A stretch of DNA of 64,000 nucleotides from Bacteroidota bacterium (GTDB taxonomy: Bacteria > Bacteroidota > Bacteroidia > Chitinophagales > BACL12). The notes beneath the pieces are model-generated. The model saw only the letters and a list, made by a program, of their open reading frames with translations. It was not told where the DNA came from and did no database searches. The stretch lies in contig JADJIS010000003.1 in assembly GCA_016706865.1 (NCBI GenBank), positions 18,030 through 82,029 of the forward strand. The letters run 5' to 3'. The translations under genes and the position numbers were made by a program. Shown here one piece after another: positions 7,101-55,772 of this stretch (position 1 is its first letter; each line of letters opens with the position of its first letter).

Positions 7101-7185
7101 TTGGCAAGGGCAGTTGGCAGTAGCAGTCACAGTCGCAGTCTCAGTTGGCAGTGGCAGTTGGCAGTTTGTAACATTGGAGTATTAT
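7101..7185 (+). repeat. tandem 6/7-mer array (NNNNCAG; GGCAGT words) ending in GGCAGTTTGTAACATTG
   Basis: Reads gggcag ttggcag tagcag tcacag tcgcag tctcag ttggcag tggcag ttggcag tttgtaacattg. The same terminal word closes each unit of the 8751-9145 array. Confidence 0.8.
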
Positions 7186-7218
7186 AGATCCAAAGGAAAA
7201 TTTGGGAAACCGGAAAAA

Positions 7219-7243
7219 GGAGAGAGGAGAAAGGAGAAAGGAG
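7219..7243 (+). repeat. purine-only heptamer array GGAGARA x3.5
   Basis: ggagaga ggagaaa ggagaaa ggag. Confidence 0.7.
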
Positions 7244-7432
7244 TTTAAATTTCATTCTGAAATTTTGCTAAATCATACCTTTTTTTATCCCTTTAAATCC
7301 GCCCTATCAGCGTCATCCGCGTTCCCCCTTTTTTTCCATCATTTGTTTTCCGATTCCCCTGTCCCCCCAACGTTGAAAACTAAATTCTAAAATTCGCCCA
7401 ATCTTCTTTTAATTCGCACCTTAATTCCTATT

Positions 7433-8701
7433 ATGAATGTAGATGTATTATTAGGGCTGCAGTGGGGTGATGAGGGGAAGGGCAAGGTGGTGGACTATCT
7501 TGCGGAACAATATGATGTGGTGGCGCGCTTTCAGGGCGGACCGAATGCCGGACATACCCTTATTTTGAACAACGGTGAGAAATTCGTTTTGCACACTATT
7601 CCCAGCGGTATCTTTTTGGAAAATTGTATCAACCTGATAGGCGCAGGGGTGGTAATCGACCCTATAACCTTCCGGATGGAGATAAAAAAACTGGAGGCAG
7701 CGGGTGTTTCGGTGGCTAACAGGCTCCTGATAAGCCGGAAGGCGCATTTGATACTTCCTACCCACAAAATGCTCGACGCAGCCAGCGAGGCTTCTAAAGG
7801 CCTGGAGAAAATTGGTTCCACATTGAAGGGAATTGGTCCGGCATACATGGATAAAACCGGTAGAAACGGGCTTAGGGTTGGCGATATTGAGAGTCCGAAT
7901 TTTTTGGATAAATACAATAAACTGAAGGAAAAACATTTTCAGTTGTTGAAAAATTATGATGGTGTATCTATTGAAGTTCCGAACGAAACGGAGTGGATGG
8001 ATGCGATAAAACATTTGCAGGACATTCCTTTTGTTGATGGTGAATATTTTTTGCAGGATCAAATTGTTGCGGGAAAAAGAATTCTTGCGGAAGGTGCGCA
8101 AGGTTCGATGTTGGATGTGGATCATGGCACTTATCCTTTTGTTACATCGAGCAATACCATTACCGCCGGAGTATGTACAGGTTTAGGGGTGGCTCCGCAA
8201 AAAATTAAGGAAGTTATTGGTATATCAAAAGCATATTGCACTCGCGTTGGATCAGGACCATTTCCTACCGAATTATTTGATGAAACGGGAGAAGAATTAC
8301 GCAAATTAGGAAATGAATTCGGTGCAACCACAGGGCGACCAAGACGTTGTGGTTGGATAGATATACCGGCGTTGAAATATGCAATAATTATTAATGGTGT
8401 TACACAAATTGCAATTACGAAAATTGATGTGTTAAATACTTTTTCAGAAATTAAAGCATGTGTTGCCTATAAAATCAATGGCGAGATAACGGATAAATTA
8501 CCATACGGAATTGTGGACGAAGAAATTGAACCTGTGTATGAAACGTTTAAAGGGTGGAATTGTGATCTTGATAATTGTAAAACAAAAGATTCGCTTCCAC
8601 TCGAGCTAAAAAATTATATTCAGTTTTTAGAATGGGAATTGAAGGTGAAGGTGTCGATGTTGTCGGCGGGGCCGGAGAGGGAGAAGTTAATTATATTGTG
8701 A
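7433..8701 (+). CDS. purA: adenylosuccinate synthase
   Basis: 422 aa. N-terminal LGLQWGDEGKGKVVDYL P-loop plus GGPNAGHT and the GTTGRPRRCGW motif. Confidence 0.97.
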   Translation: MNVDVLLGLQWGDEGKGKVVDYLAEQYDVVARFQGGPNAGHTLILNNGEKFVLHTIPSGIFLENCINLIGAGVVIDPITFRMEIKKLEAAGVSVANRLLISRKAHLILPTHKMLDAASEASKGLEKIGSTLKGIGPAYMDKTGRNGLRVGDIESPNFLDKYNKLKEKHFQLLKNYDGVSIEVPNETEWMDAIKHLQDIPFVDGEYFLQDQIVAGKRILAEGAQGSMLDVDHGTYPFVTSSNTITAGVCTGLGVAPQKIKEVIGISKAYCTRVGSGPFPTELFDETGEELRKLGNEFGATTGRPRRCGWIDIPALKYAIIINGVTQIAITKIDVLNTFSEIKACVAYKINGEITDKLPYGIVDEEIEPVYETFKGWNCDLDNCKTKDSLPLELKNYIQFLEWELKVKVSMLSAGPEREKLIIL

Positions 8702-8750
8702 GGATGGAAATTTAGGAAGGGGTCGAGCATATAGTCGGATTGGAAAAAGG

Positions 8751-9145
8751 GAGTCACAGTGGGCAGTGGCAGTAGGCAGTGGCAGTGGGCAGTTTGTAAA
8801 AGTGATAATTGTTCCTTCGAGTAGAACTAATTGGAAGATCGAGAGTTAACAGTTGGCAGTGGTAGTTAAGAGTGGGCAGTCAACAGTGGGCAGTGGGCAG
8901 TTTGTAACATTGATGAATGTTCCTTCGAGTAGAACTAATTGGAAGATCGAGAGTTAACAGTTGGCAGAGGCAGTTAAGAGTGGGCAGTCAACAGTGGGCA
9001 GTGGGCAGTTTGTATCATTGATGAATGTTCCTTCGAGTAGAACTAATTGGAAGATCGAGAGTTAACAGTTAGCAGTGGTAGTTAAGAGTTGGCAGTCAAC
9101 AGTGGGCAGTGGGCAGTTTGTAACATTGATGAATGTTCCTCCGAA
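8751..9145 (+). repeat. 108-bp higher-order tandem repeat, about 3.6 copies
   Basis: Full units lie at 8811-8918, 8919-9026 and 9027-9134. A partial leading unit spans 8751-8810 and there is a short trailing piece. Each unit is a unique ~45 nt (GTTCCTTCGAGTAGAACTAATTGGAAGATCGAGAGTTAAC) followed by about nine AGTNNNN heptamers (agttggc agtggt agttaag agtgggc agtcaac agtgggc agtgggc agtttgt). Confidence 0.9.
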
Positions 9146-9287
9146 TTTTAATTTTTCAATCAATTAAAGTTTTTTTATACTTTTAACTTTATAATGTTTC
9201 TCAGGCATGATAATGAAATTCATATGAGAAATTTAAGTTTTATATTACTGTAATTACTTCGCGTAACTTTGCGTCCTTAGCGCCTTA

Positions 9288-10610
9288 GTGGCAAAAAAAA
9301 ATGATATGCGGATCGAAAATGTTTTTAGTGTAAAAGATAATCAATCATTTCGCAATCAACTGCTAAATTATTCTTCAGGGTTTGAACATTTTGTTTTTTT
9401 GGATTCTTGTGATAATGCGGTGTATGGGGAGACGGAATTTGATTATTTATTTGCGGCGGGAAATTATGCAAGTTTAATTGCAAATGCCGGAAATGCTTTT
9501 GCGGAATTACAGCAATTTATAGATACCTATAAGGAGTGGTGTTTCGGTTATCTGGGGTATGATCTGAAAAATGAGAGTGAAAAATTATCGTCTAAAAACC
9601 AAGACAGGATCGCGTTTCCGGATATGTTGTTTTTTATTCCGGAGATTATTGTAAGGGTAAAAAATGGGGAAGTTAAAGTTTCAATTCTTTTAGAAAGTTC
9701 CATAACTTCCACTGGTGAAGAAATTTTTAATAATATTTGTGAGGAAAAAAGTGATATAAATTTTGAACGCAATAATATTAATTTATTACCTCGGATACCG
9801 AAAAAAGATTATCTCGAAAAAATAAATAAGATCCGCAAAAATATTATCGACGGTGATGTATATGAATTAACTTTTTGTCAGGAATTTTATAGTGAAAATG
9901 TTAACATAGAACCACTTATTGTTTTTCAGGAATTATGCAAAAAATCCAAAGCTCCCTTTTCCGTTTTATTTCGATGGGAAAATAAATATTTGATCTCCGC
10001 GAGTCCGGAGCGGTTTTTACAAAAGAAGGGCGATACAATTGTTTCTCAACCTATTAAAGGAACATCAAAACGCAGCTCCGATCCTTTGGTTGATGCACAA
10101 TTAAAAACTGAACTCTACAACAGCGAAAAAGACCGCGCAGAAAATGTGATGATAGTGGATCTTGTGCGCAACGACCTTGCACGCATTGGAAAAACCGGAA
10201 CAATTAAGGTTGATGAATTATTCGGAATTTATTCTTTTGAACAAGTGCATCAAATGGTTTCTACCATTTCGGCAAATGTAAAAGAGGATATTTTAATTTC
10301 AGATATTTTAAAAAATACTTTCCCAATGGGCTCCATGACCGGCGCACCAAAAGTGATGGCTATGGAACTAATCGAAAATTACGAAGAATCAAAACGCGGA
10401 TTATTTTCCGGCGCCTTCGGATATATTTCGCCTGAAGGTGATTTTGATTTTAATGTGGTAATTAGAAGTATAATATATGATGCATTGCAACAATATATTT
10501 CCGTTCAGGTAGGAGGGGCAATCGTTTTTGATTCGGTAGCAGAGAAAGAGTATGAGGAGTGCGTGTTGAAGTTGAGTGGGATTGTAGGGGTTTTTGGGGG
10601 TGGGACATAG
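9288..10610 (+). CDS. pabB: aminodeoxychorismate synthase component I (anthranilate/PABA synthase component I family)
   Basis: 440 aa. The chorismate-binding C-terminal domain carries PERFL, IKGT, SEKDRAENVMIVDLVRND and FPMGSMTGAPK motifs. The start is GTG 9288, with ATG 9306 as an alternative. The TAG stop lies inside the downstream heptamer array. Confidence 0.85.
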   Translation: MAKKNDMRIENVFSVKDNQSFRNQLLNYSSGFEHFVFLDSCDNAVYGETEFDYLFAAGNYASLIANAGNAFAELQQFIDTYKEWCFGYLGYDLKNESEKLSSKNQDRIAFPDMLFFIPEIIVRVKNGEVKVSILLESSITSTGEEIFNNICEEKSDINFERNNINLLPRIPKKDYLEKINKIRKNIIDGDVYELTFCQEFYSENVNIEPLIVFQELCKKSKAPFSVLFRWENKYLISASPERFLQKKGDTIVSQPIKGTSKRSSDPLVDAQLKTELYNSEKDRAENVMIVDLVRNDLARIGKTGTIKVDELFGIYSFEQVHQMVSTISANVKEDILISDILKNTFPMGSMTGAPKVMAMELIENYEESKRGLFSGAFGYISPEGDFDFNVVIRSIIYDALQQYISVQVGGAIVFDSVAEKEYEECVLKLSGIVGVFGGGT

Positions 10611-10662
10611 GACATAGGACATACGACATAGGACATACGACATAGGACAGACATAGGACAGT
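10603..10662 (+). repeat. heptamer array (GGACATA/CGACATA) about 8.5 units
   Basis: ggacata ggacata ggacata cgacata ggacata cgacata ggacaga cata ggacagt. The pabB stop (10608-10610) is part of the array. Confidence 0.9.
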
Positions 10663-10810
10663 GGAAATGTGATATAGGACTTGAATGGATTTAAAGTGAT
10701 AAATTTTATTTCTAACTAAAAGTTAGCGTTTAAATGTAAAATTTTCAATTAATTAGGATACACCTTTTTTATCCTTTCCCCAACCTTCCTTCCTTTTTCA
10801 ATCTTAGAAC

Positions 10811-10897
10811 CTTCCTCTTCGACTCTTCGAATCTTCTCCCTTCGAATCTTCAAGGACTTCCCCTTCGATTCTTCGAATCTTCTCCCTTCGAATCTTA
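10811..10897. repeat. 7/8-mer array (CTTCGAAT / CTTCTCC), containing a 26-nt unit twice
   Basis: cttcgaatcttctcccttcgaatctt occurs twice, at about 10827-10852 and 10871-10896. The array ends exactly on the stop codon (10895-10897) of the minus-strand CHAP gene. Confidence 0.85.
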
Positions 10898-11521
10898 CTC
10901 TATCCTCATCCATCCAAGCACCCTTCTATTCATCACCTTCCACCTATCATTTATCAGAACTAATTTTAATTCTTCTCTGCTTGGGGCATCGGGGCCGGCA
11001 TTTTGTTGAATGATCTCGATGGAGTTTTCTGATACTTTGGAAATAATTGCAATATGTCCGTATTTATTTCCGAGATGACCATCAAAAACTAAAATATCAT
11101 CTACGGAAGGTTTTTTTAAACTGGCATTGGAATATTGAACGAGATCGCGTTTTTCATTATAGGATGCATCGGGTAAATTGCGATCGAAAATATCTTTTGC
11201 ATTACCTCCCGGCACCGGCATTACATGATTAAAATGTTCGTAATAATATCTTTTTACAAATTCCACACATTGCCATTGTAATCCGATATTATATCCATCT
11301 TTTGAAATATTTTTTGCAGTTACATTGGAAGTTTCTCCGTTATAATAAACCACTACATGATTTAAAGAATCAATGGGAGTTCCTACCTTGAATTTTAAAT
11401 TGTCGGGAAAAACTAAATTTAATGCCTGCAGAATAAATAATGCTATTGCCAGACATAACACAACTATAATTGTATATACAATATTTAAATTTCTTGTTGC
11501 GGGATGTTTACTTGTGATCAT
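10895..11521 (-). CDS. CHAP domain-containing protein (amidase/peptidase) with N-terminal TM anchor
   Basis: 208 aa. Catalytic-type Cys context LQWQCVEFVKRYY and His context NKYGHIAIISKV are typical of CHAP domains. Confidence 0.75.
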   Translation of the reverse strand: MITSKHPATRNLNIVYTIIVVLCLAIALFILQALNLVFPDNLKFKVGTPIDSLNHVVVYYNGETSNVTAKNISKDGYNIGLQWQCVEFVKRYYYEHFNHVMPVPGGNAKDIFDRNLPDASYNEKRDLVQYSNASLKKPSVDDILVFDGHLGNKYGHIAIISKVSENSIEIIQQNAGPDAPSREELKLVLINDRWKVMNRRVLGWMRIE

Positions 11522-11633
11522 GCTTCAATAATCTAACGAATCTACCTAATTTATTGGTATAGATGAAATTGCAATCCATATTTAATAAAAAAGGCCACCT
11601 TAATTGGCGGCCTTTTACAAATATCATTTTTTG

Positions 11634-12425
11634 TCAGAATTTAAAAGTTATTCCCACTGTTCCAAGGATCATATCGGTTTTTGATTCTTTTGGGAAAGCG
11701 GCAATGGAAATATCCTCTTCATCAACTTCTTCCTGACTGGTAGGAATGGTGTTAAATACCACCTCCCATTCATCGATATCATCTTCCACAAAATATGAAG
11801 CATTTCCACCCAGCGAATAGGCAACCCTAAGATCGATCAACATATTTTCATTCAGTTCTATCATTAAACCGGCAGCACCTCCATAACTAAAGGTCCAGTC
11901 GGAATTTTGTTTGGAACTGGTGATCAGCGGATTATCTTCTTCACTCAGATAATATTCTTCCGATTCGTCGTAAATAGAAGTTTTAGTGGAAAAATTGTTA
12001 AATCCAAGAATACCATCCACATAAGGTTTAAAAAATTTAGTTGGCGATTGCACTCTTAAATTCAAATGACCGGTAGAAATAGTATTAGAGGTTTCGATAC
12101 GCATGGGGAATAACAATTGATCGATAACTATTCCATCAACAACTATATCGGCGGTAAGTGTTTTGTCCTCGGTTTTAAAACCATTATTCATAAATGCAAG
12201 GTCAAAACCCACTAATACCGGAATTTTTACCGATGGTTGGAAAAACAAGTTAAATCCACCGCCAACGGCAACTTCGTCGTTGTAAGTTTTAAAATCGTTC
12301 ATTGGAATACCCAGATCGAAGTTCAATCCAAAAAATACTGCCGATTTTTTAACCGGGTGAGTAGTTTGTGCCATGAGGGAAAAGGCTGTGCATACAAAAA
12401 CAACAGAGAGTGTAAGTTTTTTCAT
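11634..12425 (-). CDS. outer-membrane beta-barrel (porin-family) protein
   Basis: 263 aa with a signal peptide (MKKLTLSVVFVCTAFSLMAQ), alternating beta-strand pattern and a C-terminal ...GTVGITFKF aromatic terminus. Confidence 0.7.
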   Translation of the reverse strand: MKKLTLSVVFVCTAFSLMAQTTHPVKKSAVFFGLNFDLGIPMNDFKTYNDEVAVGGGFNLFFQPSVKIPVLVGFDLAFMNNGFKTEDKTLTADIVVDGIVIDQLLFPMRIETSNTISTGHLNLRVQSPTKFFKPYVDGILGFNNFSTKTSIYDESEEYYLSEEDNPLITSSKQNSDWTFSYGGAAGLMIELNENMLIDLRVAYSLGGNASYFVEDDIDEWEVVFNTIPTSQEEVDEEDISIAAFPKESKTDMILGTVGITFKF

Positions 12426-12455
12426 AATTGTAAAATTAAATAATAAATGAATGTG

Positions 12456-13550: not shown

Positions 13551-14286
13551 GTGCGATCTGTTTTTTATAGGAATTTCCGATACTCTTCCATTTCATTTTT
13601 ATCACACCATAAACCGCCTCCTTAAATATACCACTACTCATTTTGGATATTCCTTTTTCTCGGTCCTTAAAGGTAATTGGAATTTCCATTAATGTAAATC
13701 CACATTTCCACGCCGCAAATTTTAATTCGATCTGAAATGCATATCCAATAAATTTGATCTTATCCAGATCTATTGTTTCCAACACCTTTCTTTTATAACA
13801 AACAAATCCGGCGGTGGTATCTTTTACAGGCATTCCTGTTATCATTCTTACATAAAGGGAGGCACCTTTGGAAATAAAAATTCTATTAAAAGGCCAATCC
13901 TCCACATTTCCATTTTTTACATATCTTGAACCGATCACAACATCAGCACCATCGGCGCAACTTTTTAATAGCCTGGGCAGGTCGGATGGTTTGTGAGAAA
14001 AATCGGCATCCATTTCCACTATATAATCATAATTATTTTTTAAAGCCCACTTAAATCCGGCTATATATGCTGTGCCTAAACCTAGTTTTCCGGGTCGGGA
14101 CTGTAAAAATAGTCTGTCGGGATATTTTACCTTTAATTGTTCCACTTCTTTTGCCGTGCCATCGGGTGAATTGTCATCAATTATCAATACATGCAATTGC
14201 TCCGGCAACGATAACACGGCATGTATCATTTCGGCAATATTTGCCTGCTCATTATAAGTTGGTATTACGATAAGTGAAGAGGGCAA
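13543..14286 (-). CDS. GT2 glycosyltransferase, polyprenol-monophosphomannose (dolichyl-phosphate mannose) synthase-like
   Basis: 247 aa. LIVIPTYNE...IIDDNSPDGT...EMDADFSH motifs (DXD-type GT2). TTG start with no nearby in-frame ATG. Confidence 0.85.
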   Translation of the reverse strand: MPSSLIVIPTYNEQANIAEMIHAVLSLPEQLHVLIIDDNSPDGTAKEVEQLKVKYPDRLFLQSRPGKLGLGTAYIAGFKWALKNNYDYIVEMDADFSHKPSDLPRLLKSCADGADVVIGSRYVKNGNVEDWPFNRIFISKGASLYVRMITGMPVKDTTAGFVCYKRKVLETIDLDKIKFIGYAFQIELKFAAWKCGFTLMEIPITFKDREKGISKMSSGIFKEAVYGVIKMKWKSIGNSYKKQIAHE

Positions 14287-14288
14287 CG

Positions 14289-15059
14289 TTAATTTATTTT
14301 TGGATTTTTAATTTTGAATTCGATCATTTTTAATTTTAATTTGGTGTGGAGTGAAAAATCACTTTTGTAGATCCAATCAAAATATTGTGGTTCTCTTTTA
14401 TAAACCTCTGCGCATGATTGTCCGTTGTATTTTCCAAAATTAAAATATTCTATTCCATCTTTTAAGATCATCCTTCTGCCAAAATCAACAAAGTCGCCAT
14501 CCTTAGTAAATTCATGCAGTGATTGAACATCATTTTTCAATTGATCTTTATACATTTCCAATTGGCCTACCAATACTTCATAAGTTGCTTTAACATCTGC
14601 TTCGGCACTATGCGCATCAATTAACTCCTTGTTGCAAAAAAACTTGTAAGCAGCCTCCAGGGTTCTTTTTTCCATTAAGGTAAAAATACGCATCACATCT
14701 ATATAACGACGGTTTTCGTCAAAACCTGTATCTGCTCTTAAAAATTCTTCTGCGAGCATAGGGATATCAAATTTATTGGAGTTATAACCTGCAAGATCAC
14801 AATTATTTAAAAAGTCGCGCAGTTCAATTGCCACATCCTTAAATTTTGGGGAATCTTTAACATCTGCATCAAAAATTCCGTGAAAAACGGAGGAGGCTTC
14901 CGGGATATGCATCTCCGGATTTATCCGCATGGTTTTGCTCTGCTGACTCCCGTCGGGCAGTATTTTCAGGATACTTATCTCTACAATTCGGTCGCTGCTT
15001 AGGTTTATTCCTGTTGTTTCAAGGTCAATAAAAGCTAAAGGTTTATCAAGTTTTAACAT
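14289..15059 (-). CDS. 3'-5' exonuclease, DnaQ/DEDD family
   Basis: FIDLETTG (ExoI), NSNKFDIPML (ExoII) and HSAEADV (ExoIII) motifs. Start placed at ATG 15059; the ORF track uses TTG 15071. Confidence 0.8.
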   Translation of the reverse strand: MLKLDKPLAFIDLETTGINLSSDRIVEISILKILPDGSQQSKTMRINPEMHIPEASSVFHGIFDADVKDSPKFKDVAIELRDFLNNCDLAGYNSNKFDIPMLAEEFLRADTGFDENRRYIDVMRIFTLMEKRTLEAAYKFFCNKELIDAHSAEADVKATYEVLVGQLEMYKDQLKNDVQSLHEFTKDGDFVDFGRRMILKDGIEYFNFGKYNGQSCAEVYKREPQYFDWIYKSDFSLHTKLKLKMIEFKIKNPKIN

Positions 15060-15073
15060 ATATATCGGCAAAT

Positions 15074-16414: not shown

Positions 16415-16571
16415 GCACCGAAGGTATAACAATACAACAATAGATGAATATGTGCACTTGTGGATTGTGGAATTTGAAATAAATTTTATATCTTTACGTT
16501 GATAAATCTAAAGAAGAATATGGTTGAACTTTTCCTCAATTTTTAAAGTTAACCTAGTAATTTTGCCAATT

Positions 16572-16721: not shown

Positions 16722-16779
16722 TCAAAATCTAAATATTTTTTTAAAGTCTGATCATACCAAGCTGATCAGGCTTTACTAT

Positions 16780-17185: not shown

Positions 17186-17242
17186 GACAATATTTTTTTT
17201 CTGTTGGCAACTATTCTCAAACAAAATTCGTAATATTATCCG

Positions 17243-22044: not shown

Positions 22045-22067
22045 AGTTTACTAATTAATATATTCAA

Positions 22068-22099
22068 AACCCTTTCAGTTTTTCTGGAAGGGTTTTTTT
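22068..22099 (+). terminator. intrinsic terminator of 19054..22044
   Basis: AACCCTTTCAG-TTTTT-CTGGAAGGGTT stem (one G-U pair) followed by a T7 run, 24 nt after the stop. Confidence 0.8.
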
Positions 22100-22348
22100 A
22101 ATTGTTAAGGGTGATGATCATGTCATGCCTTATCATCGATTTGAAGTAAAATCTTACTTTATTAATTTATATACCTTTCTGGTTTATGATCTTACTGAAG
22201 TGGCAGGAATTTTAGTACCGCAATAGGGTTTAATCCCTATTCAAATTAAGATTACTGAAGCTTACCATTGGAGATCACGGTTAAATATTCTACATCTATA
22301 ATGAGAGTATCAAGTATCAGGAAAACATTAATCTCCAAACCCGGAACC

Positions 22349-22736
22349 AGTGAGGCTCTCGCTCACGTAGCAAGGGTCTCACTAACTAAAGGTCATTGGA
22401 CAAGGACATGGGACACGACTTGACAACAACAACATGGGAGAATGTAAAGGGGAAACAGGAAAACAAACGGTGGGATTTACAACAATTCGGAGCTAGTGAG
22501 GCTCTCGCTCCTAGAGAGGGTCTCACTAATGGCATATGTACAAAAAAACAAAATATGGAATTTGCAAAATCTTCAACCTGGGTCTAGTGAGGCTCATGCT
22601 CTTAACGGGGGTCTCACTAACGGATTAACCCAAAATCTTTGTGCAGCCAACACTTTTTTCGCACTGCAGTGATCAGTGAAAACACCAACCACGGCCACGG
22701 AGAGAGTGAAGATCTCGCTTAGCGATGGTCTCACAA
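22349..22736 (+). repeat. four dispersed copies of a ~35-nt hairpin element AGTGAGGCTC-N13-15-GGGTCTCACTAAY
   Basis: Copies at 22349-22386, 22495-22530 and 22586-22621, plus a degenerate copy at 22705-22736. Spacing is 146, 91 and 119 nt. The arms pair 10/10 only with two G-U pairs on the plus strand. Confidence 0.8.
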
Positions 22737-22796
22737 TTGTTCAATCAACGGGTAATGTCATCTATCCAGCCATGTAACATTACTAATATATAGAGC

Positions 22797-22828
22797 ATAA
22801 AAAAACCTCCCTGAAAAACAGGGAGGTT
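22797..22828 (-). terminator. intrinsic terminator of 22850..24442
   Basis: On the minus strand: AACCTCCCTG-TTTTT-CAGGGAGGTT followed by a T-run. It lies 22 nt after the stop. Confidence 0.85.
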
Positions 22829-22849
22829 TAAAATGACTTAAATTATTTC

Positions 22850-25937: not shown

Positions 25938-26017
25938 GGGACACGGGACATAGGACACGAGACACAGGACATGGGACATGGGACACGGGACATGGGACAC
26001 GGGACACGAGACACGGG
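25938..26017 (+). repeat. heptamer array (GGGACAY) about 11 units; contains a G3N4 x5 quadruplex-type motif
   Basis: gggacac gggacat aggacac gagacac aggacat gggacat gggacac gggacat gggacac gggacac gagacac ggga. Begins 7 nt after the stop at 25929-25931. Confidence 0.9.
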
Positions 26018-26136
26018 AAAACAAAGGGTGGGATTTAGTTAAATTTTGGAAAAAATTTCGGCTCCTATTTTATTACTTCTTATTTGGCAAGTCAAATTAG
26101 AAATTAAATCCCAAATATTACGTTAACACGGCTGTT

Positions 26137-26186
26137 TAATTATCAATTATCAATTGTCAATTGTCAATTATCAATTGTCAATTGTT
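26137..26186. repeat. heptamer array (TRTCAAT) about 6-7 units spanning the waaA stop codon
   Basis: tatcaat tatcaat tgtcaat tgtcaat tatcaat tgtcaat. The waaA stop (26164-26166, minus strand) and its last ~5 codons (QLTIDN) are encoded by the array. Confidence 0.9.
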
Positions 26187-38487: not shown

Positions 38488-38496
38488 AAATTGTGA

Positions 38497-43058: not shown

Positions 43059-43119
43059 ATGTTGCACAAGCCTAAGGCTTGCGCTATTTTTGTTGAGCTG
43101 CACGCCGAAGGCGTGCAGC
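43038..43119 (+). repeat. REP cluster, left: three GC-rich hairpins
   Basis: GAAGCGGACGCTTC (43040-43053), GCACAAGCC-TA-AGGCTTGCGC (43064-43084) and the perfect GCTGCACGCC-GAA-GGCGTGCAGC (43097-43119). Confidence 0.85.
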
Positions 43120-44022: not shown

Positions 44023-44078
44023 GGGAAGCGGACGCTTCAAAGAACGTTGCACAAGCCTAAGGCTTGCGCTATTTTTAT
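44023..44078 (+). repeat. REP, right direct copy
   Basis: Starts 1 nt after the RAYT stop. Hairpins at 44025-44038 and 44049-44069 are identical to those in the left copy. Confidence 0.85.
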
Positions 44079-44149: not shown

Positions 44150-44340
44150 GGTTTCGAATAGCCGGGTATAGCAGCCGAAAGCCGCTTTCTAGCCCCGATT
44201 GTAGCGGAAACCCCTGCCGTGAATGAATTTTATTTTTTAGTTAATACATTTTGCATAGGTTGGATTTTTGGGTTTGAATTGATTAAAATAGGCAGGGTTG
44301 CAGCGAAAAGCGGGGGCGCGGCCCTGAAAAAACGCCGCGG
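44150..44340. repeat. GC-rich REP-like islands downstream of the RAYT locus
   Basis: Contains GATTGTAGCGGAAACCCC (44197-44214), identical to 7017-7034, and GGTTGCAGCGAAAAGC (44296-44311), related to 7058-7073. Confidence 0.6.
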
Positions 44341-44445: not shown

Positions 44446-44688
44446 ATGGCAAGAGTATGTGATTTATCAGGAAAAAGGACGGTTAGCGGGAACAATGTTT
44501 CTCACTCGAATCGTAGGACCCGCCGCAAGTTTTACCCGAATTTGCAGGATAAGAAGTTCTTCATAGCTGAGGAAAATCGTTGGGTTACCCTTAAAGTGGC
44601 TACCACCACGTTGAAAACCATCAACAAAAAAGGTATCAGCGCCTATTTGAAGGAATTGCGCGCATCAGGCAAAATAATTAAACTTTAA
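44446..44688 (+). CDS. rpmB: 50S ribosomal protein L28
   Basis: [34 protein letters not shown]... from ATG 44446. Confidence 0.95.
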
Positions 44689-45091: not shown

Positions 45092-45113
45092 TTTCACCGG
45101 CTTACAATATTTA

Positions 45114-45142: not shown

Positions 45143-45163
45143 GTACCCCTAACTTAAAATTTC

Positions 45164-46114
45164 ATGGGTTTATTCAGCATTTTCAAAAAAGAACAAAAAG
45201 AGGATCTCAATAAAGGTTTAGAGAAAACCAAACAAAGTATTTTTTCGAGAATTACTAAGGCAATTGCCGGAAAAAATACTGTTGATGATGATTTTTTGGA
45301 TGAATTGGAAAATATTCTCATTTCCAGTGATGTGGGCGTGGAAACAACTCTTAAAATTATAGACAGATTAACAAAAAGAGTTGCAGGGGAAAAATATTTT
45401 GGCAGCAACGAATTAAATGAAATATTAAAAGAGGAAGTAGTAAAATTGCTTTCTGAAAATAATACTCCTGATTTTACAACATACGAAGTTCCGGCTAATA
45501 CAAAACCTTATATAGTTTTGGTAGTTGGTGTAAATGGTGTAGGCAAAACAACCACGATAGGAAAACTCGCCTATCAATTTAAACAAAGCGGAAAAAACGT
45601 TTTATTGGGTGCAGCGGATACCTTTCGCGCTGCAGCCGTTGATCAATTAACCATTTGGGCCGATAGAGTTGGGGTGCCCATTATTAAACAACAAATGGGT
45701 GCCGATCCTGCTGCGGTTGCTTTCGATACGGTTAATGCGGCAAAAACACAGAACGCTGATGTTGTATTAATAGATACCGCCGGTAGATTACACAATAAAG
45801 TAAATCTGATGAACGAATTATCGAAAATAAAAAGGGTAATTCAAAAAGTATATCCCGACGCACCTCATGATGTTTTATTGGTATTAGATGCATCAACCGG
45901 GCAAAACGCTTTTGAACAGGCAAAACAATTTACTGCGGCTACAGAAGTTACTTGTTTGGCGCTCACAAAATTGGATGGAACCGCAAAGGGCGGAGTTGTG
46001 TTAGGTATTGCAGATCAATTTAAAATTCCGGTTAAATATATTGGAGTGGGGGAGAAGATGCATCAGTTGCAGGTGTTTAATAAATCGGAATTTGTTGATT
46101 CACTGTTGGGCTGA
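45164..46114 (+). CDS. ftsY: signal recognition particle receptor FtsY
   Basis: SRP54-type GTPase: GVNGVGKTTTIGKLA, DTAGR, TKLDGTAKGG. Confidence 0.95.
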   Translation: MGLFSIFKKEQKEDLNKGLEKTKQSIFSRITKAIAGKNTVDDDFLDELENILISSDVGVETTLKIIDRLTKRVAGEKYFGSNELNEILKEEVVKLLSENNTPDFTTYEVPANTKPYIVLVVGVNGVGKTTTIGKLAYQFKQSGKNVLLGAADTFRAAAVDQLTIWADRVGVPIIKQQMGADPAAVAFDTVNAAKTQNADVVLIDTAGRLHNKVNLMNELSKIKRVIQKVYPDAPHDVLLVLDASTGQNAFEQAKQFTAATEVTCLALTKLDGTAKGGVVLGIADQFKIPVKYIGVGEKMHQLQVFNKSEFVDSLLG

Positions 46115-46122
46115 AGCCCAAA

Positions 46123-46182
46123 AATGTACCAATGTACCAATTAACAGCCAAATTAATGTACCAATTAACAGCCGCATTAACG
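46123..46182 (+). repeat. 8-mer/24-mer array (TGTACCAA; ATGTACCAATTAACAGCC x2) starting 9 nt after the ftsY stop
   Basis: aatgtaccaatgtaccaattaacagccaaattaatgtaccaattaacagccgcattaacg. Confidence 0.85.
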
Positions 46183-46286
46183 TAATAAAAATAAATTAAC
46201 ACTAATATCATCAATAACTTTTTAATTTAGTAAAATAATTCCACCATACCGATCACATAAGCAGCCGCAGGCAGCGGTTATATTGG

Positions 46287-46334
46287 GTTCATTGGTACAT
46301 TGGTACATTTAATTCATTGGTACATTTGATAAAT
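46287..46334 (+). repeat. inverted counterpart array (CATTGGTA x3) upstream of rimO
   Basis: ttcattggtacattggtacatttaattcattggtacatttgataaatg. Positions 46290-46308 are the exact reverse complement of 46123-46141. Confidence 0.85.
46320..46327 (+). promoter_or_regulatory. candidate Bacteroidota -7 promoter box TAcaTTTG for rimO
   Basis: Matches TAnnTTTG and lies 36 nt upstream of the rimO ATG. It is created by the last repeat word. No clear -33 TTTG was seen. Confidence 0.35.
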
Positions 46335-46362
46335 GTTCACAGCGAAGTAGAATTTAATAATA

Positions 46363-47673: not shown

Positions 47674-47700
47674 ATTCTAAAACATTTAAATATTTTTATC

Positions 47701-49296: not shown

Positions 49297-49335
49297 TGTC
49301 ACAAAACTATTAAAATTTAATAGGGAATTGGGGAT

Positions 49336-52300: not shown

Positions 52301-52914
52301 TGCGGTCCATCGATATTTTTGCCTATTTTCTCGAAAAAAATCACAAACAAATACTGGATAGAGATGGTTTGGAAAATATTCGGCAAATACGCAGCAGCAT
52401 CATTAAAATGAGTGCACTGATTGATAATTTACTCATTTTTTCAAAAATTGGTCGATGGGATAAAAAATCTGATATAATTAATACAAAAGAGTTAGTTGAT
52501 GATGTATTAAAAGATATTGAAGAACGTGAAGATATCAGTGCTTATAGAATTATTGTCGGAGAGTTGCCAGAACTTTCCGGAGATTATAAAATGTTTCGCC
52601 AGGCATTTATGAATCTACTTTCCAATGCAATTAAATTCAGTAAGGTGCGTAAAAAACCACAAATAGAATTTTTCGGCTCAGAAGATGAACGATCTGTTAC
52701 CATTGCAATTAAAGATAATGGTGTTGGATTTAGCATGGAATTTAAAGATAAGTTATTCAAGGCTTTAAAACGTTTGCACAGCGACGAACAATTTGAAGGA
52801 AGTGGAATAGGATTAGCAATTGTAGAACGCATTATTAAACGACATAATGGATCTATTTGGGCCGAGAGCAATGAACAAAAGGGGACGACGTTTTATTTTA
52901 GTATTCCTAAATAA
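49336..52914 (+). CDS. multi-PAS/GAF sensor histidine kinase
   Basis: 1192 aa. Several PAS/PAC units, a GAF-like segment (about aa 400-560), H-box VSHDLRTPLRSI, and HATPase boxes (NAIKFS, DNGVGF, GSGIGL). Start is TTG 49336 or ATG 49360. Confidence 0.9.
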   Translation: MLSIFELLMADHLNTRKIPVKYQALEYLQMPVALTDKAFNLLHFNAAFATLIQTKTSVFPSRDLFEIFSGLDIRTNTQQLLENNNISFIIHGVKHIESAVSYDLHLSLIDPKLDHLEGYTVTFIVSHSSDKNQQKINELGLQHLQLMEFTNNGILIHRNGIIVFANKRANTIAAFPDGETFVGKNIWNYISDEFKKLVGDRIQEIIQNKNAVKPIELKMIREDGVILDAEVISFPLLYEGEFAIKTIITDISHRKKAEQLLVDTRQQYFTLVENLSDVVFQTDTDAQLIYLNASWEKLTGFTIEETKGRSCFEYLHHPQNTEIFYSKVRRLLIHGIKDFQYDLLLNTKNGSAKFVEVSLRPIYDENNQISGINGIIRDIHSKKIAEIELKKIQKTLKLHQSVLVGLTKEESIIKGDLDIALKHIAKITAETLNVSKIQIKEFINEQQELKSCIDYEAVSGEYSNGANLSFSQFPSYFNTLLKEHVIISDEVLYDPRLEELKDVYLIPEKVISKMCITFGSREKIWGLVCVESRNAFHKWTLEDQSFARSIADFITLAFESNLLKKTQLELIESDNLYRSLVEQATDAIIMIDKNNKFIDVNSKMCELTGFTKEELLEMTFEQLISGKFFDKSLDYYLKPGRINRFFGERNYLTKSGELRIAEISANVFPDGRIHGIARDITERKVQEQALIDSEARLELALKGADLGTWDFYIAENKMVHNKRWAEMLGYYFENTVVTQQFWEKFLHPDDSNSAYAAFQDHLNGKTPFYEATIRMLASNGEWKWILDKGKVVEWDKEGKPIRASGIHQDITALRVYQQQLFNQKKFLQEIINAIPNLVYVKNNNEEFVTVNNALAEFLGTSPEELLSYKRNKDQGYSEVLQKLFERDFDVFITKKQVITDEQKITNVATGKTYWLQSIKLPLMDDDGNFSEILSVSMNVTEIKNKEFELGILNDKLEQKVMERTSMLESANKELETFNYSVSHDLRTPLRSIDIFAYFLEKNHKQILDRDGLENIRQIRSSIIKMSALIDNLLIFSKIGRWDKKSDIINTKELVDDVLKDIEEREDISAYRIIVGELPELSGDYKMFRQAFMNLLSNAIKFSKVRKKPQIEFFGSEDERSVTIAIKDNGVGFSMEFKDKLFKALKRLHSDEQFEGSGIGLAIVERIIKRHNGSIWAESNEQKGTTFYFSIPK

Positions 52915-52930
52915 TAAAATCAAGTCTGGA

Positions 52931-53014
52931 ATCAGGAGGTAATGGTCAGGAGTCATTAGTCAGGAGTCATTGGTCAATAGTCAATAGTCAATGGTCAATA
53001 GTCAGGAGTAAATG
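52931..53014 (+). repeat. heptamer array GTCANNR, 12 units in perfect phase
   Basis: atcagga ggtaatg gtcagga gtcatta gtcagga gtcattg gtcaata gtcaata gtcaatg gtcaata gtcagga gtaaatg. Begins 17 nt after the kinase stop. Confidence 0.9.
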
Positions 53015-53035
53015 CATCCGGATAGGAGGATCAAT

Positions 53036-53088
53036 CTCATTACTCCCGTCCGACCGGGTCGTCCGGGCGGGCATTACTCATTACTCAT
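53036..53088 (+). repeat. 53-nt direct repeat, copy A (GC hairpin + CATTACT heptamers), upstream of tRNA-Leu
   Basis: CTCATTACTCCCGTCCGACCGGGTCGTCCGGGCGGGCATTACTCATTACTCAT. Hairpin CCCGTCCG...CGGGCGGG at 53045-53071. Confidence 0.9.
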
Positions 53089-53169
53089 ACATGATTCGTA
53101 ATAAAAGCTCCAAACGAATCAATCTCACTACTCCCCACTCCCTATTCACTTTAATACCATCAATTTTTT

Positions 53170-53177
53170 TATTTTTG
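53170..53177 (+). promoter_or_regulatory. candidate -7 promoter box TAttTTTG for tRNA-Leu
   Basis: Exact TAnnTTTG match ending 7 nt before the first tRNA base. Confidence 0.4.
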
Positions 53178-53184
53178 CATATAT

Positions 53185-53266
53185 ACCGGAATGGTGGAAC
53201 TGGTAGACACGCACGTTTCAGAGGCGTGTGCCGCGAGGTATGCGGGTTCGAGTCCCGCTTCCGGTA
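53185..53266 (+). tRNA. tRNA-Leu (anticodon CAG), class II with long variable arm; CCA not encoded
   Basis: Hand-folded cloverleaf. Acceptor ACCGGAA/TTCCGGT. D-arm GTGG-AACTGGTAGA-CAC. Anticodon arm CACGT-TTCAGAG-GCGTG (U33, CAG, A37). 13-nt variable arm. T-arm GCGGG-TTCGAGT-CCCGC. Discriminator A. Confidence 0.9.
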
Positions 53267-53277
53267 CGAAATAAATG

Positions 53278-53304
53278 GTCTGTCTTTTTTTGACAGACTT
53301 TTTT
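53278..53304 (+). terminator. intrinsic terminator after tRNA-Leu
   Basis: GTCTGTC-TTTTTTT-GACAGAC followed by TTTTTT. Confidence 0.8.
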
Positions 53305-53344
53305 ATTTTAAATTTTTGATTTTCTTTGAAAGGAGTCGCGTTTC

Positions 53345-53375
53345 CGTGAATCGTCAATCGTGAATCGTGAGTCCG
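53345..53375 (+). repeat. 31-nt heptamer block CGTGAAT CGTCAAT CGTGAAT CGTGAGT CCG, copy A
   Basis: Repeats at 53549-53579 with 3 mismatches. Confidence 0.85.
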
Positions 53376-53492
53376 GGTGATGTGGTGTTTTCGGAGGATA
53401 TACTATCAACTTTATAGGATCTATCTCACCACTCAGCAATTTGTCAATAGTCATTAGTAAGGAGTAAAACTATTCGGCTGTCTGTAGGCAAA

Positions 53493-53545
53493 CTCATTAC
53501 TCCCGTCCGACCGGGTCGTCCGGGCGGGCATAACTCATTACTCAT
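53493..53545 (+). repeat. 53-nt direct repeat, copy B, downstream of tRNA-Leu
   Basis: 52/53 identical to 53036-53088, offset 457 bp. Weaker similarity extends about 50 nt further upstream in both copies (GTCAATAGTCA..GGAGTAAA). Confidence 0.9.
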
Positions 53546-53548
53546 TTA

Positions 53549-53579
53549 CGTTAATCGTCAATCGTGAGTCGTGAGTCCG
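53549..53579 (+). repeat. 31-nt heptamer block, copy B (CGTTAAT CGTCAAT CGTGAGT CGTGAGT CCG)
   Basis: See 53345-53375. Confidence 0.85.
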
Positions 53580-53646
53580 ATATAGGTTCCATCCAGAATT
53601 GGGATTTACATTTGAAACTAACAGCTCCATGCGGTCTGTCTCACCA

Positions 53647-53678
53647 CCTGCCTGACGCTGACGCAGTCGGCAGGCAGG
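53647..53678. other. GC-rich hairpin CCTGCCTG..CAGGCAGG just 3' of the E1 dehydrogenase stop, followed by a CCACTCA heptamers
   Basis: cctgcctgacgctgacgcagtcggcaggcagg has an 8-bp outer stem plus inner pairs. No T-run on the minus strand, so it is REP-like rather than a canonical terminator. Confidence 0.6.
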
Positions 53679-53693
53679 CTCCCCACTCACCAC

Positions 53694-55772
53694 TCACCAA
53701 CTAAGAAGCTCCTCCATCACCACTCCAACTTTTTCCGCACTCGGAAGCATGGCTTTTTCTAAGCCGGAGTTTAGTGGGACTGCGGGGAGATTTTTTGCTC
53801 CTAACATTTTTACTGGAGCATCGAGATATTTAAATAATTCGGAAGAAATTCTTCCCGCAATTGCCTGTGCAAAAGAATTCATGATAGGTTCTTCCGTAAG
53901 AACAAAACATTTATTGTGTCGTTTTACGGAAGTTTCAATTGCTTCCCAATCGTATGGTGATAATGTTCTAAGATCTAAAATTTCCACCTGACCAGGATAT
54001 TTTTTACTCGCATTTAATGCCCAATGAACACCCATTCCATAGGTGACAACAACAATACTTTCTCCGTTATTTATTTTTTCTTCTGAGGCATGTTGAAATA
54101 TGCGTGCCTTTCCTAAAGGAATAATATAATCATCGGAAGGTTGAATTGATTTTGCAGCAGCCGTTCCGGGAACCTTGCTCCAATACAAACCTTTATGTTC
54201 AAACATCACAACAGGATTCGGATCATAAAAAGCACCCTTTAATAATCCTTTCATGTCGGCGGCATTGCTGGGGTAAACAACTTTTATTCCTTTTATAGCA
54301 GTAATGGAAGATTCGATGGAACCGGAATGATAAGGTCCTCCCGATCCATATGCACCAATTGGAATGCGAATAACTGTTTGCACATTCCATTTTCCATTGG
54401 TGAGATAAAATGATTTTGATAATTCGGACACCAATTGATTTACGCCTGTCCATATATAATCGGCAAACTGAATTTCCACCACCGGTTTTGCTCCGGCGGC
54501 GCTCATACCTAATGTAGAACCCACTAAATATGCTTCCTGAATTGCAGTATTAAAAACTCTGTGATCTCCATGTTTAACAGCTAAAGTGGCAGCTTCCCTG
54601 AAAACTCCGCCCAATCTCTTTCCAACATCCTGCCCATATAACAATGCTTCCGGGTGTTTGGTCAAAATTTCATCCATGGCAAACAAGGCAGCATCCACCA
54701 TTATAACTTGCTCAGCACCAACGGGTTCGCGGGTTCCTTGTTCTTCCTGGATGGTTGACTCTGCAAACTCAAAAAGCTCCACGGTGGAGGGATCGGGGTC
54801 GGGGGAGGCAACTACTGCCGCAAAGGCATCTCTGGTCATCTTGTCGACCGTGGATTCTAATTGGAGCAATTCGTTACTGCTAAAACCCGCTGCCTGGAGT
54901 AAATTTCTCAATTTTGGCAATGGATCCCGGCTTTGATGCTCGTTCAGGTCTTCTTCCGAACGATACATTTCCATCCTCACTCCACTCGTATGATGCCCGA
55001 GTAAAGGAACTTTGGCATGAATCAAAATAGGTTTTCTGTTCACCCGAACATAACCTATAGCTTCTTTTACACAGTTCCAGCATTCGGTAAAATCACTTCC
55101 ATCCACCCTTACTCTTCTCAAACCTTTAAATCCGGCGGCATATTCGTAAGCATCCATGGTTCGGGCTTCTTCTTTGGATACAGAAATTCCCCAGTCATTA
55201 TCCTGAACCAAATAAATAATAGGTAAACCTTTTAAAACAGCAAATTGCAATGCCTCTGCAACTTCACCTTCCGTCATGGCGCCATCGCCTATAGAGCAAA
55301 CAACCAATGGATTTTCTTTGGAGGTATCCAACAAATTTTGTTGTTCAAGATATTGTATCCCTTGTGCCACGCCGGTTGTAGGAATTGCCTGCATGCCGGT
55401 TGCCGAGGAAGAATGTATCATTTGCGGATAATCTTTTCCTTTATAACTCGGATGACAATAATAATTGCGACCACCACTGAAAGGATCATCTCTCTTTGCC
55501 ATTAACTGTAACAGAATTTCTTCCGGTTTCCAGCCCATACCCATTAACATGGAGTCGTCACGATAGTATAAACTCGCCCAATCGCATTTTTTTAACTGAA
55601 GTCCCATTGCGATCTGAATGGCCTCATGTCCCCTGGAATTGGCATGCACAAAGATGCAGGTTTGCCTGTTCTCATTGAATATCTCACTCATCACCTTACT
55701 CGTAAACATGATGCGGTAAGCTTCCAGGAGTATTTTTTTATCAACCAATTCGAGAGTTTCCTTTTGATTCAT
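53694..55772 (-). CDS. 2-oxoacid (branched-chain alpha-keto acid type) dehydrogenase E1 component, fused alpha/beta subunits
   Basis: 692 aa. The N-terminal half has a TPP-binding alpha-type sequence (GDGAMTEGEVAEALQFA). The C-terminal half is a transketolase-like pyrimidine-binding beta-type sequence (FNTAIQEAYLVG, EIQFADYIW). Confidence 0.9.
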   Translation of the reverse strand: MNQKETLELVDKKILLEAYRIMFTSKVMSEIFNENRQTCIFVHANSRGHEAIQIAMGLQLKKCDWASLYYRDDSMLMGMGWKPEEILLQLMAKRDDPFSGGRNYYCHPSYKGKDYPQMIHSSSATGMQAIPTTGVAQGIQYLEQQNLLDTSKENPLVVCSIGDGAMTEGEVAEALQFAVLKGLPIIYLVQDNDWGISVSKEEARTMDAYEYAAGFKGLRRVRVDGSDFTECWNCVKEAIGYVRVNRKPILIHAKVPLLGHHTSGVRMEMYRSEEDLNEHQSRDPLPKLRNLLQAAGFSSNELLQLESTVDKMTRDAFAAVVASPDPDPSTVELFEFAESTIQEEQGTREPVGAEQVIMVDAALFAMDEILTKHPEALLYGQDVGKRLGGVFREAATLAVKHGDHRVFNTAIQEAYLVGSTLGMSAAGAKPVVEIQFADYIWTGVNQLVSELSKSFYLTNGKWNVQTVIRIPIGAYGSGGPYHSGSIESSITAIKGIKVVYPSNAADMKGLLKGAFYDPNPVVMFEHKGLYWSKVPGTAAAKSIQPSDDYIIPLGKARIFQHASEEKINNGESIVVVTYGMGVHWALNASKKYPGQVEILDLRTLSPYDWEAIETSVKRHNKCFVLTEEPIMNSFAQAIAGRISSELFKYLDAPVKMLGAKNLPAVPLNSGLEKAMLPSAEKVGVVMEELLSW

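Follow-up and report, generated by a model that had tools for sequence, protein, structure and literature searches.

Heptanucleotide tandem arrays at gene 3' ends in a clade of uncultured Chitinophagales

Heptanucleotide tandem repeats, known from bacterial genomes since 1990, still have no function assigned to them in the literature. Among them are the short tandemly repeated repetitive elements (STRR) of heterocystous cyanobacteria, reportedly described by Mazel et al. in 1990 and said to be defined by the words CCCCAGT, TTGGTCA and CAACAGT. Here we describe arrays of this general kind in a 64,000-nucleotide stretch of a Bacteroidota genome (assembly GCA_016706865.1, contig JADJIS010000003.1, positions 18,030 to 82,029; hereafter the window), where they are concentrated at gene 3' ends. 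Dispersed extragenic repeats with a similar preference for gene 3' ends and the space between convergent genes are familiar as repetitive extragenic palindromic sequences and bacterial interspersed mosaic elements, which are imperfect palindromes that fold, have a dedicated transposase and are transcribed with the upstream mRNA. The arrays of the window share that concentration at gene 3' ends and between convergent genes, but they are mostly unstructured tandem repeats and no enzyme associated with them was seen in the window.

Rehm et al. (2015, PMC4692102) described heptamer repeats of two kinds, GGGAATC in Xanthomonas and GGGGA(C/T)T in Nostoc PCC 7120. These G-rich heptamers lie on the sense strand within 50 bp of stop codons and are rare between divergent genes; they occur between the same genes in two related species, varying in length and sequence, and are mostly transcribed, their function being not known (PMC4692102). 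The window arrays are likewise intergenic tandem 7-nt units with a G-rich sense strand within about 50 bp past stop codons, the gaps here being 0, 0, 0, 0, 6, 8, 17 and 55 nt. The repeats of Rehm et al., however, have one dominant word, G3–G4 tracts and a preference for four units, as fits a quadruplex, whereas here there are many words, one quadruplex motif and up to 12 units in the window (∼18 in relatives), in a different phylum. The GGGACAY array is the only one that has the features of the quadruplex-forming class, with a G3–4 tract in every unit over at least four units.

MacGregor (2015, PMC4679880) described repeats of TAACTGA and of further heptamers in Beggiatoaceae, Cyanobacteria and five Bacteroidetes (Flexibacter litoralis, Gramella forsetii, Aequorivita sublithincola, Elizabethkingia anophelis and Paludibacter propionicigenes). 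Close relatives were repeat-free with shorter spacers, repeats with stops in all frames ended open reading frames (ORFs), and in orange Guaymas 'Maribeggiatoa' and F. litoralis the TAACTGA repeats lay mostly just upstream of starts (PMC4679880). These too are intergenic heptamer direct repeats in Bacteroidetes, with other heptamer words in the same spacers, but in the window TAACTGA occurs only as six singletons, none of them in tandem, and the arrays occupy the end of the spacer next to the stop, just downstream of it. A preliminary description of the window had known of no equivalent for Bacteroidota, but heptamer repeats in that phylum and, in other bacteria, their proximity to stops had already been published. 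What it recorded is a correct observation of a real phenomenon, of a kind already known from other bacteria.

As cited in PMC4679880 and PMC4692102, Mrazek (2007) found heptamers to be the most abundant class of long simple sequence repeats in many prokaryotes and proposed polymerase slippage as the cause. The window arrays have the hallmarks of this class as those citations give it, namely head-to-tail 5–11-nt units beyond chance, whole-unit polymorphism, a sporadic phylogenetic distribution and coding DNA free of units that are not multiples of three. The survey as it is cited there comes without the stop adjacency, strand rule or composite elements seen here. For STRR, a role in transcript stability has been suggested (PMC2670836). 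The arrays resemble STRR as tandem heptanucleotides in non-coding DNA with several words per genome and many dispersed copies. The preliminary description had also seen a link in the literal occurrence of TTGGTCA and CAACAGT, but in the window no STRR word is tandem; the single CCCCAGT, 12 TTGGTCA and 16 CAACAGT are singletons near chance level, and word identity with STRR was rejected accordingly. The host, moreover, is not a heterocyst-forming cyanobacterium but a member of the Bacteroidota, as indicated in the window by a Por_Secre_tail (type IX secretion system, T9SS, sorting) domain, a Flavo-1 RNA and best matches to Chitinophagales and other Bacteroidota.

Heptamer arrays in the window and its relatives

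A lag-p self-match detector, compared with block-wise dinucleotide-preserving shuffles, finds 12 period-7 arrays in the 64-kb window where 0.2 are expected (12–13 in all, of 3 to 12 units each). Other periods from 4 to 13 yield 0–3 arrays each, and the seven arrays at period 14 are a harmonic of period 7. The autocorrelation of intergenic DNA has its maximum at lag 7 (0.314 against a background of ∼0.282); that of coding DNA has a lag-3 signal only. Tandem Repeats Finder (TRF) calls period-7 repeats at ten places (Table 1) and also reports 6-, 8-, 13-, 23-, 24- and 108-nt patterns overlapping the heptamer sites. Every array is intergenic or overlaps just the last codons of a gene. By TRF and inspection of the sequence, all arrays named in the preliminary description are real and lie where it placed them, and its picture of a dispersed family of heptanucleotide arrays, each site with its own word, is borne out. 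Its strict or near-strict period of 7 was too narrow: seven dominates, but 8-nt (AATGTACC, CTTCGAAT), 6-, 23-, 24- and 108-nt units occupy like sites. The GTCAAT core noted in several words is not consistently oriented relative to the adjacent gene. The genes concerned, confirmed by Pfam, are purA, a chorismate-binding pabB-like gene, a CHAP-domain gene, waaA (kdtA), ftsY, a radical-SAM rimO/miaB-like gene, a PAS histidine kinase and an E1 dehydrogenase.

Searches with pabB, waaA and the kinase yielded a graded set of relatives, among which synteny is conserved. Identity to the window at waaA is 90% for L185, 87% for L170, 85% for L169, 83% for L172 and 70% for the outgroup L186; at the kinase it is 80% for L173, 79% for L174 and 57% for the outgroup L175; L092 was found by pabB (76%). 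L174 and L169 belong to the same metagenome-assembled genome, and the comparative series comprises seven genomes: the window species, four congeners and the two outgroups. A search of species genomes with purA gave no close relatives (≤64% identity) and served for background array density. The clade holds 31 period-7 arrays in 171 kb and the two outgroups none in 34.8 kb; among other loci, most of them from Bacteroidota, the counts are 22 in 1.25 Mb and 40 in 0.81 Mb. The expansion is specific to a single genus-level clade of uncultured Chitinophagales (Bacteroidota). Proteins identical to those of the window are named 'Chitinophagales bacterium' and come from wastewater metagenome-assembled genomes.

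The words turn over at a given gene end. At the convergent pair formed by waaA and a 251-aa gene, the words at the two stops, each read in the sense of its own gene, are ATTGACA and GGGACAY in the window, GGGAATT plus ATTGATA and AGGACAT/AGGAAWT in L185, AATGGAG and GGTGAGT in L170, and GGACATA and AGGAGAR in L169; L172 has the 8-mer GGAATGAA at the waaA stop and none at the other. The words behind the 251-aa gene change stepwise, from GGGACAY through AGGACAT/AGGAAWT to AGGAGAR, and such single-step differences are what mutation followed by homogenization (concerted evolution) would give. At the 3' end of purA, L092 has ∼18 units of ATGAGTA and then a 50-nt module unlike that of the window, in four units that contain TGGGGAG/TGGTGAG. 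Of four species, two have the kinase array (12 units in the window, 17 at the corresponding site of L174) and two, L173 and L175, lack it; the AATGTACC array after ftsY has ∼2 units in the window, 3 in L173 and 5–6 in L174.

Unit number also varies between strains, a comparison that the preliminary description had proposed, and it does so within a species in whole units (−7 nt, −28 nt). Among contigs encoding an identical waaA protein, the GGGACAY array is shorter by exactly 28 nt (4 units) in L187 and L190, with nearly identical flanks, and L190 also lacks one 7-nt unit of the ATTGACA array. The CHAP-gene array is 28 nt shorter in L003, and the 108-nt macro-repeat in the purA–pabB spacer is shorter by one unit (−108 nt) in L008. 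The arrays are present in several separate assemblies, and a 1.43-Mb contig is identical to the window over the 232-nt waaA/251-aa-gene spacer with both its arrays; short-read contigs break inside arrays in eight of nine cases. The locus series offers a clean comparative case of seven genomes at graded distance, in which repeats arise in 18-nt spacers and hold gene ends while the word drifts base by base, and in which unit number changes within species. In practice, short-read assemblies of these bacteria, which are abundant in wastewater, break at the arrays.

Position, strand and structure of the arrays

The arrays abut or overlap stop codons, as had been reported: four stops lie inside an array or at its edge and four more lie 6–55 nt upstream of one (Table 1). 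The stronger wording that they are anchored on stop codons needs to be qualified, since the adjacency, although real, is partly forced. The outgroup spacer between waaA and the convergent 251-aa gene is 18 nt (L186), that between ftsY and rimO is also 18 nt, without a repeat (L175), and a tRNA-Leu lies 40–55 nt after the kinase stop in L173 and L175. With ancestral spacers this small, any insertion must touch a stop. What the arrays are associated with is the 3' end of a transcribed unit and not the stop codon itself, because the arrays at 7099–7243 lie between divergent genes after no stop codon and begin 17 nt past a Flavo-1-like small RNA.

Arrays often replace the stop codon, giving the upstream protein a short, variable, array-encoded tail. 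In an alignment of the waaA proteins the conserved part ends at the same point in all, and members of the clade add variable tails of 4–17 residues that are encoded by the array and terminate at the first in-frame stop that the array supplies. A word that contains TAG or TGA puts a stop in each of the three frames within 21 nt, and an ORF entering such an array therefore ends there. A stop-rich word is nevertheless rejected as a general property of the arrays, as by inspection of the sequence GGACATA, ATTGACA and TGGTGAG hold stops while GGGACAC, CAGTGGG and AGATTCGA do not. False ORFs arise from arrays in which one strand is free of stops. In L169 an annotated 132-aa 'gene' (11322–11720) runs wholly through the repeat-filled spacer between waaA and the 248-aa gene and is almost certainly spurious. 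Spurious ORFs and variable protein C-termini of this sort are features that annotation pipelines will miscall.

The arrays have a marked strand preference. Those next to gene or RNA 3' ends, in the window and in relatives, were read in the sense of that gene: the purine fraction exceeds 0.5 in all 16 word/site combinations (binomial P = 3e-5) and G exceeds C in 15 of them (P = 5e-4), the exception being the ftsY 8-mer. For the nine independent window sites alone the counts are 9/9 and 8/9. Both orientations occur within 300 nt at convergent pairs, which shows that the rule follows the gene and not the replication strand. Array flanks contain 0.30 G compared with 0.16 in the 3' flanks of array-free genes, while C is 0.15 in both. 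The earlier characterization of the sense strand as purine- and G-rich and C-poor is therefore correct in its first part, but C is not depleted. The coding sense strand already has a purine fraction of 0.545 and a G fraction of 0.204, so that the arrays exaggerate a bias that genes already have. This strand rule has now been seen in three phyla.

As RNA, most arrays are unstructured (z between +0.8 and −1.3). Their supposed lack of self-complementarity fails twice, in the foldback of the ftsY–rimO spacer (z −3.25) and in the waaA array, whose CAATTG palindromes give z −3.9. A giant bidirectional terminator, formed by pairing of the two arrays of a convergent spacer, was considered and rejected, as whole-spacer folds are no better than shuffles (z −0.5, +2.2 and −0.8).

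A consensus scan of the window places hairpin-plus-T terminators after the genes ending at 22044, 22850 and 34918 and after tRNA-Leu; past the gene that ends at 44688 there is a further one 425 nt downstream, at 45113. The same scan finds no intrinsic terminator at array-bearing gene ends. Genes with classical hairpin-plus-T terminators carry no array, as had been noted, and at the convergent pair of genes for T9SS-tail proteins (22045–22849) this extends to all five species examined, in each of which two terminators are kept and arrays are absent. The arrays have replaced no terminator, because the array-bearing ends are terminator-free already in the outgroups.

Origin and possible function of the arrays

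We propose, with a probability of roughly 0.55, that the arrays are STRR-like heptanucleotide simple-sequence repeats that are made by slippage, homogenized and exchanged by recombination, and survive only 3' of transcribed units in the orientation that is G-rich in sense. The starting points of this proposal are observed: unit gain and loss, word drift, a clade-specific origin in tiny spacers and the strand rule. Slippage in 7-nt steps, which is the literature's explanation for the general excess of heptamers, would be the generator, and the gain and loss of whole units is as expected from slipped-strand mispairing or unequal recombination. Recombination would homogenize arrays and exchange them between sites, and some arrays form the arms or contents of small foldback or composite elements. 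Selection would then act as a filter that tolerates arrays only outside promoters, just 3' of a gene or RNA, and lets only the orientation that is purine- and G-rich in the transcript survive. On these assumptions the arrays would be transcribed passengers of the 3'-untranslated region (3'-UTR) that have no dedicated function, being for the most part G-rich, unstructured stretches from the stop to the next hairpin.

Several points weigh against slippage-made passengers. The strand rule goes beyond what a purely neutral process would predict and, alone among the features, is left unexplained by a neutral slippage model. It points to selection tied to transcription, which could be positive, and offers a handle for experiments. 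Between species whose spacers cannot otherwise be aligned, arrays still hold the same gene ends, and arrays and canonical terminators never occur at the same gene end within the window. In present-day spacers, seven of eight stops have an array within 20 nt compared with 3.6 expected (P = 0.011), although this is weak evidence because present spacers largely consist of the repeats. Moreover, the proposal presupposes that the arrays are transcribed, an assumption based on where they lie. Together, the strand rule and the persistence of position leave room for a positive role, in the 3'-UTR or as antisense loading sites for Rho, and jointly we regard these two as a tenable minority view.

The better of the two, which we still consider rather unlikely, is that the arrays are functional 3'-UTR RNA elements, whose unstructured G- and purine-rich 7-nt units, placed right behind the stop, bind a single-stranded-RNA-binding protein (of the cold-shock, S1, RRM or KH type, one per unit) or stall 3'-to-5' exonucleases and so protect or tune mRNAs that have no intrinsic terminator. 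Such a role would account for the strict purine and G bias of the sense strand, for positions that persist despite word turnover and for the mutual exclusion of arrays and canonical terminators at gene ends, conserved in five species; the unstructured state of most arrays and the set that follows a small-RNA gene instead of an ORF are likewise consistent with it. Cold-shock proteins bind heptamer repeats one per unit (cited in PMC4679880), and transcript stabilization has been proposed for STRR (PMC2670836). It is harder to reconcile with words that differ widely and share no motif beyond G and purine richness, with 8-nt units at the same sites and with unit numbers that vary freely within species. 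Close species differ in the presence of an array (kinase, 248-aa gene), and outgroups do without arrays at the same genes, with an 18-nt spacer and no terminator.

A wider version, about as doubtful, would make the arrays a strand-specific module of transcript 3' ends that serves in this clade as a hairpin-independent alternative to intrinsic terminators. In the sense direction a G-rich platform phased at 7 nt, directly behind a stop or a small RNA, would recruit a single-strand-binding protein or block exonucleases, while the C-rich complement would load Rho on opposing transcripts, and the word could drift freely as long as period and strand composition were kept. Should this also apply to Xanthomonas and Nostoc, the 35-year-old question of STRR would have a testable answer.

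Antisense loading of Rho by itself appears improbable. Sites of Rho utilization (rut) are C-rich and G-poor, and the complement of the arrays, with C ∼0.30 and G ∼0.15 over 50–100 nt, resembles such a site and could stop convergent read-through or antisense RNA, one barrier per gene. Each gene of both convergent pairs indeed has its own array in its own orientation, and these pairs are without an intrinsic terminator. Arrays also lie between co-directional genes (purA–pabB, ftsY–rimO, kinase–tRNA), however, where no convergent transcript is expected, the ATTGACA and AATGTACC arrays are not C-rich in antisense, and outgroups cope with an 18-nt convergent spacer.

Non-B structure of DNA or RNA, a mechanism put forward for the GGGAATC and GGGGAYT repeats, is very unlikely to explain the arrays; on this view RNA polymerase would pause past the stop at G-quadruplexes or R-loops formed by the G-rich non-template strand. 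The G-rich strand is the sense strand, and similar heptamer repeats form quadruplexes in vitro (PMC4692102), but most words have G2 or fewer per unit (GGACATA, ATTGACA, AGTCAAT, AATGTACC). The GGGACAY array is the only one of ∼13 with four or more G3 tracts and a canonical G3N4 motif, and the quadruplex was rejected as a general explanation. Chance matches or assembly artefacts, which the frequent breaks of short-read contigs at arrays might suggest, are ruled out by the ∼60-fold excess over shuffles, by identical sequence in several independent assemblies, the 1.43-Mb contig included, and by homologous arrays in related species.

Array coordinates, shared elements and neighbouring features

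The arrays and associated features of the window are listed in Table 1.

Table 1. Heptamer arrays, related repeats and an adjoining small RNA in the window
Feature	Coordinates	Strand	TRF period-7 call	Remarks
Flavo-1-like small RNA	7000–7082	+		Rfam RF01705, 32.6 bits (below the gathering score of 42), E 2e-5; GAUUGUAGCGGAAA...UUGCAGCGGAAAGC motifs present
Mixed 6/7/13-nt array (GCAGTN, CAGTTGG)	7099–7185	+		TRF 7095–7166; repeat family D1; ends in GGCAGTTTGTAACATTG
GGAGARA heptamer array	7205–7243	+	7212–7243	189 nt upstream of purA start; TRF and lag-p detector
CAGTGGG heptamer array	8757–8793	+	8757–8793	55 nt after purA stop; sense purine 0.68, G minus C = +12
108-nt macro-repeat, 3.4 copies	8777–9144	+		purA–pabB spacer; TRF 94% match
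GGACATA/CGACATA array, 8.7 units	10603–10662	+	10603–10660	Contains pabB stop TAG 10608–10610; identical in four assemblies; RNA unstructured (z +0.8)
AGATTCGA (8 nt) + AGGGAGA (7 nt) array, CHAP-gene sense	10800–10897	-		Sense purine 0.71; 8- and 7-nt units alternate into a 23-nt super-unit; ends at CHAP-gene stop TAA 10895–10897
GGGACAY array, 11.6 units	25938–26018	+	25938–26018	6 nt after stop of the 251-aa gene (25176 gene); canonical G3N4 motif
ATTGACA/ATTGATA array (waaA sense), 6.9 units	26138–26185	-	26138–26185	Contains waaA stop TGA 26164–26166; encodes last residues
Foldback left arm, AATGTACC 8-mers with AATTAACAGCC punctuation	46123–46184	+		8 nt after ftsY stop
Foldback right arm, GGTACATT units	46286–46326	+		Reverse complement of left arm; 36 nt before rimO/miaB-like start
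GTCANNR array (AGTCAAT, AGTCAGG, GGTCAAT), 12 units	52932–53014	+	52951–53004	17 nt after histidine-kinase stop; ends in GGAGTAAA
CATTACT array	53032–53088	+	53072–53088	Split by 26-nt GC-rich palindrome (53046–53071)
CGTSAAT array	53341–53375	+	53345–53370	42 nt after tRNA-Leu terminator
Second composite copy	53430–53579	+	53562–53577	Degenerate GTCA array + GGAGTAAA, CATTACT array, palindrome 53503–53528, CGTSAAT array 53545–53579; repeat families D1–D3, 91–96% identity to first copies
TGGTGAG array (E1 sense), 3 units	53679–53699	-	53679–53699	Contains E1-dehydrogenase stop TGA 53694–53696

The same words and motifs recur at non-orthologous sites. GGACATA, found at the end of pabB in the window, recurs in L169 at that of waaA; GGAGARA, which lies upstream of purA in the window, recurs in L169 where the 248-aa gene ends; and TGGTGAG is found at the ends of the E1 gene (window), the 248-aa gene (L170), purA (L092) and a DUF1905 gene (L173). 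The motif GGCAGTTTGTAACATTG that ends the mixed array near purA is also the closing motif of each 108-nt unit 3' of that gene, where a unit consists of a CAGTGGG array, AGTCAAC/AGTTAAG words and the hairpin AACATTGATGAATGTT; a motif search gave five matches to GGCAGTTTGTAACATTG compared with 0.32 expected. The ftsY and waaA arrays have an AATTAA(A)CAGCC punctuation motif in common. One composite, in which a GTCA-type array closing with GGAGTAAA is combined with a CATTACT and a CGTSAAT array, is present in two copies between the kinase and the E1 gene and in another between waaA and its neighbour in L170. These shared words, motifs and composites indicate that arrays spread or exchange between sites besides growing in place.

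Inside both CATTACT arrays of the window lies the 26-nt GC-rich palindrome CCGTCCGACCGGGTCGTCCGGGCGGG, which is found again at a non-orthologous site in L170 (11499–11525). It is missing from the orthologous CATTACT array of L174, which identifies it as a later small insertion, and it looks like a very small mobile insertion. The CATTACTC repeat that flanks it is indistinguishable from the periodicity of the host array. The palindrome presumably resembles the small dispersed repeats that are nested within other repeats in cyanobacteria. The ftsY–rimO spacer is a foldback of the AATGTACC and GGTACATT arms (RNA fold of 46112–46345, −49 kcal/mol); it has terminal inverted repeats and is present in three species, with the 18-nt spacer in the outgroup. 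No second copy of this foldback was found in the window.

Other repeats of the window differ from the heptamer arrays or are less clear. The 805-nt spacer of the convergent T9SS-tail genes contains four copies (22349–22740) of a ∼40-nt hairpin repeat (CTAGTGAGGCTC...GGGTCTCACTA), which is a second, palindromic family distinct from the heptamer arrays. The same spacer holds GTGAGAC-related repeats in L185 and a different repeat, AACCTGTGAGGTC, in L169 and L170. In the pabB/CHAP spacer a module of ∼60–110 nt around the AT-rich hairpin CTAACTAAAAGTTAG (10690–10740) is duplicated in L001–L003, which are of the same species. A weak AT-rich period-7 pattern (TTTAATT, 62% match; 14293–14342) overlaps the 3' end of an RNase T/ExoX-like gene (14289–15071, minus strand) and may be a degenerate array or mere low complexity. 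The GCA/GCAGCA trinucleotide repeat at 58405–58487, inside the overlapping minus-strand frames 57720–58487 and 58384–59040, is a separate, coding-compatible repeat class.

An Rfam search of the array regions returned only tRNA-Leu, Flavo-1 and the sub-threshold Flavo-1-like match. The Flavo-1 RNA at 44187–44321 (plus strand) scores 45.2 bits, above the gathering score, and has GAUUGUAGCGGAAA / UUGCAGCGGAAAGC motifs as in 7000–7082. An identical hairpin, CAAGCCTAAGGCTTG followed by CGCTATTTTT, stands after two successive genes (43067–43081 and 44052–44066) as a duplicated terminator-like element. Two of the relatives are altered at the tRNA-Leu that lies 3' of the kinase. In L174 a phage-type integrase gene (13951–15060) directly 3' of tRNA-Leu suggests an integrated element, and synteny with the window, where the E1 dehydrogenase follows, is broken. 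In L175 (13640–13790) the tRNA-Leu is seemingly interrupted after GGTATGCGGG by ∼130 nt, after which its 3' part resumes; the interruption could be an intron or an insertion.

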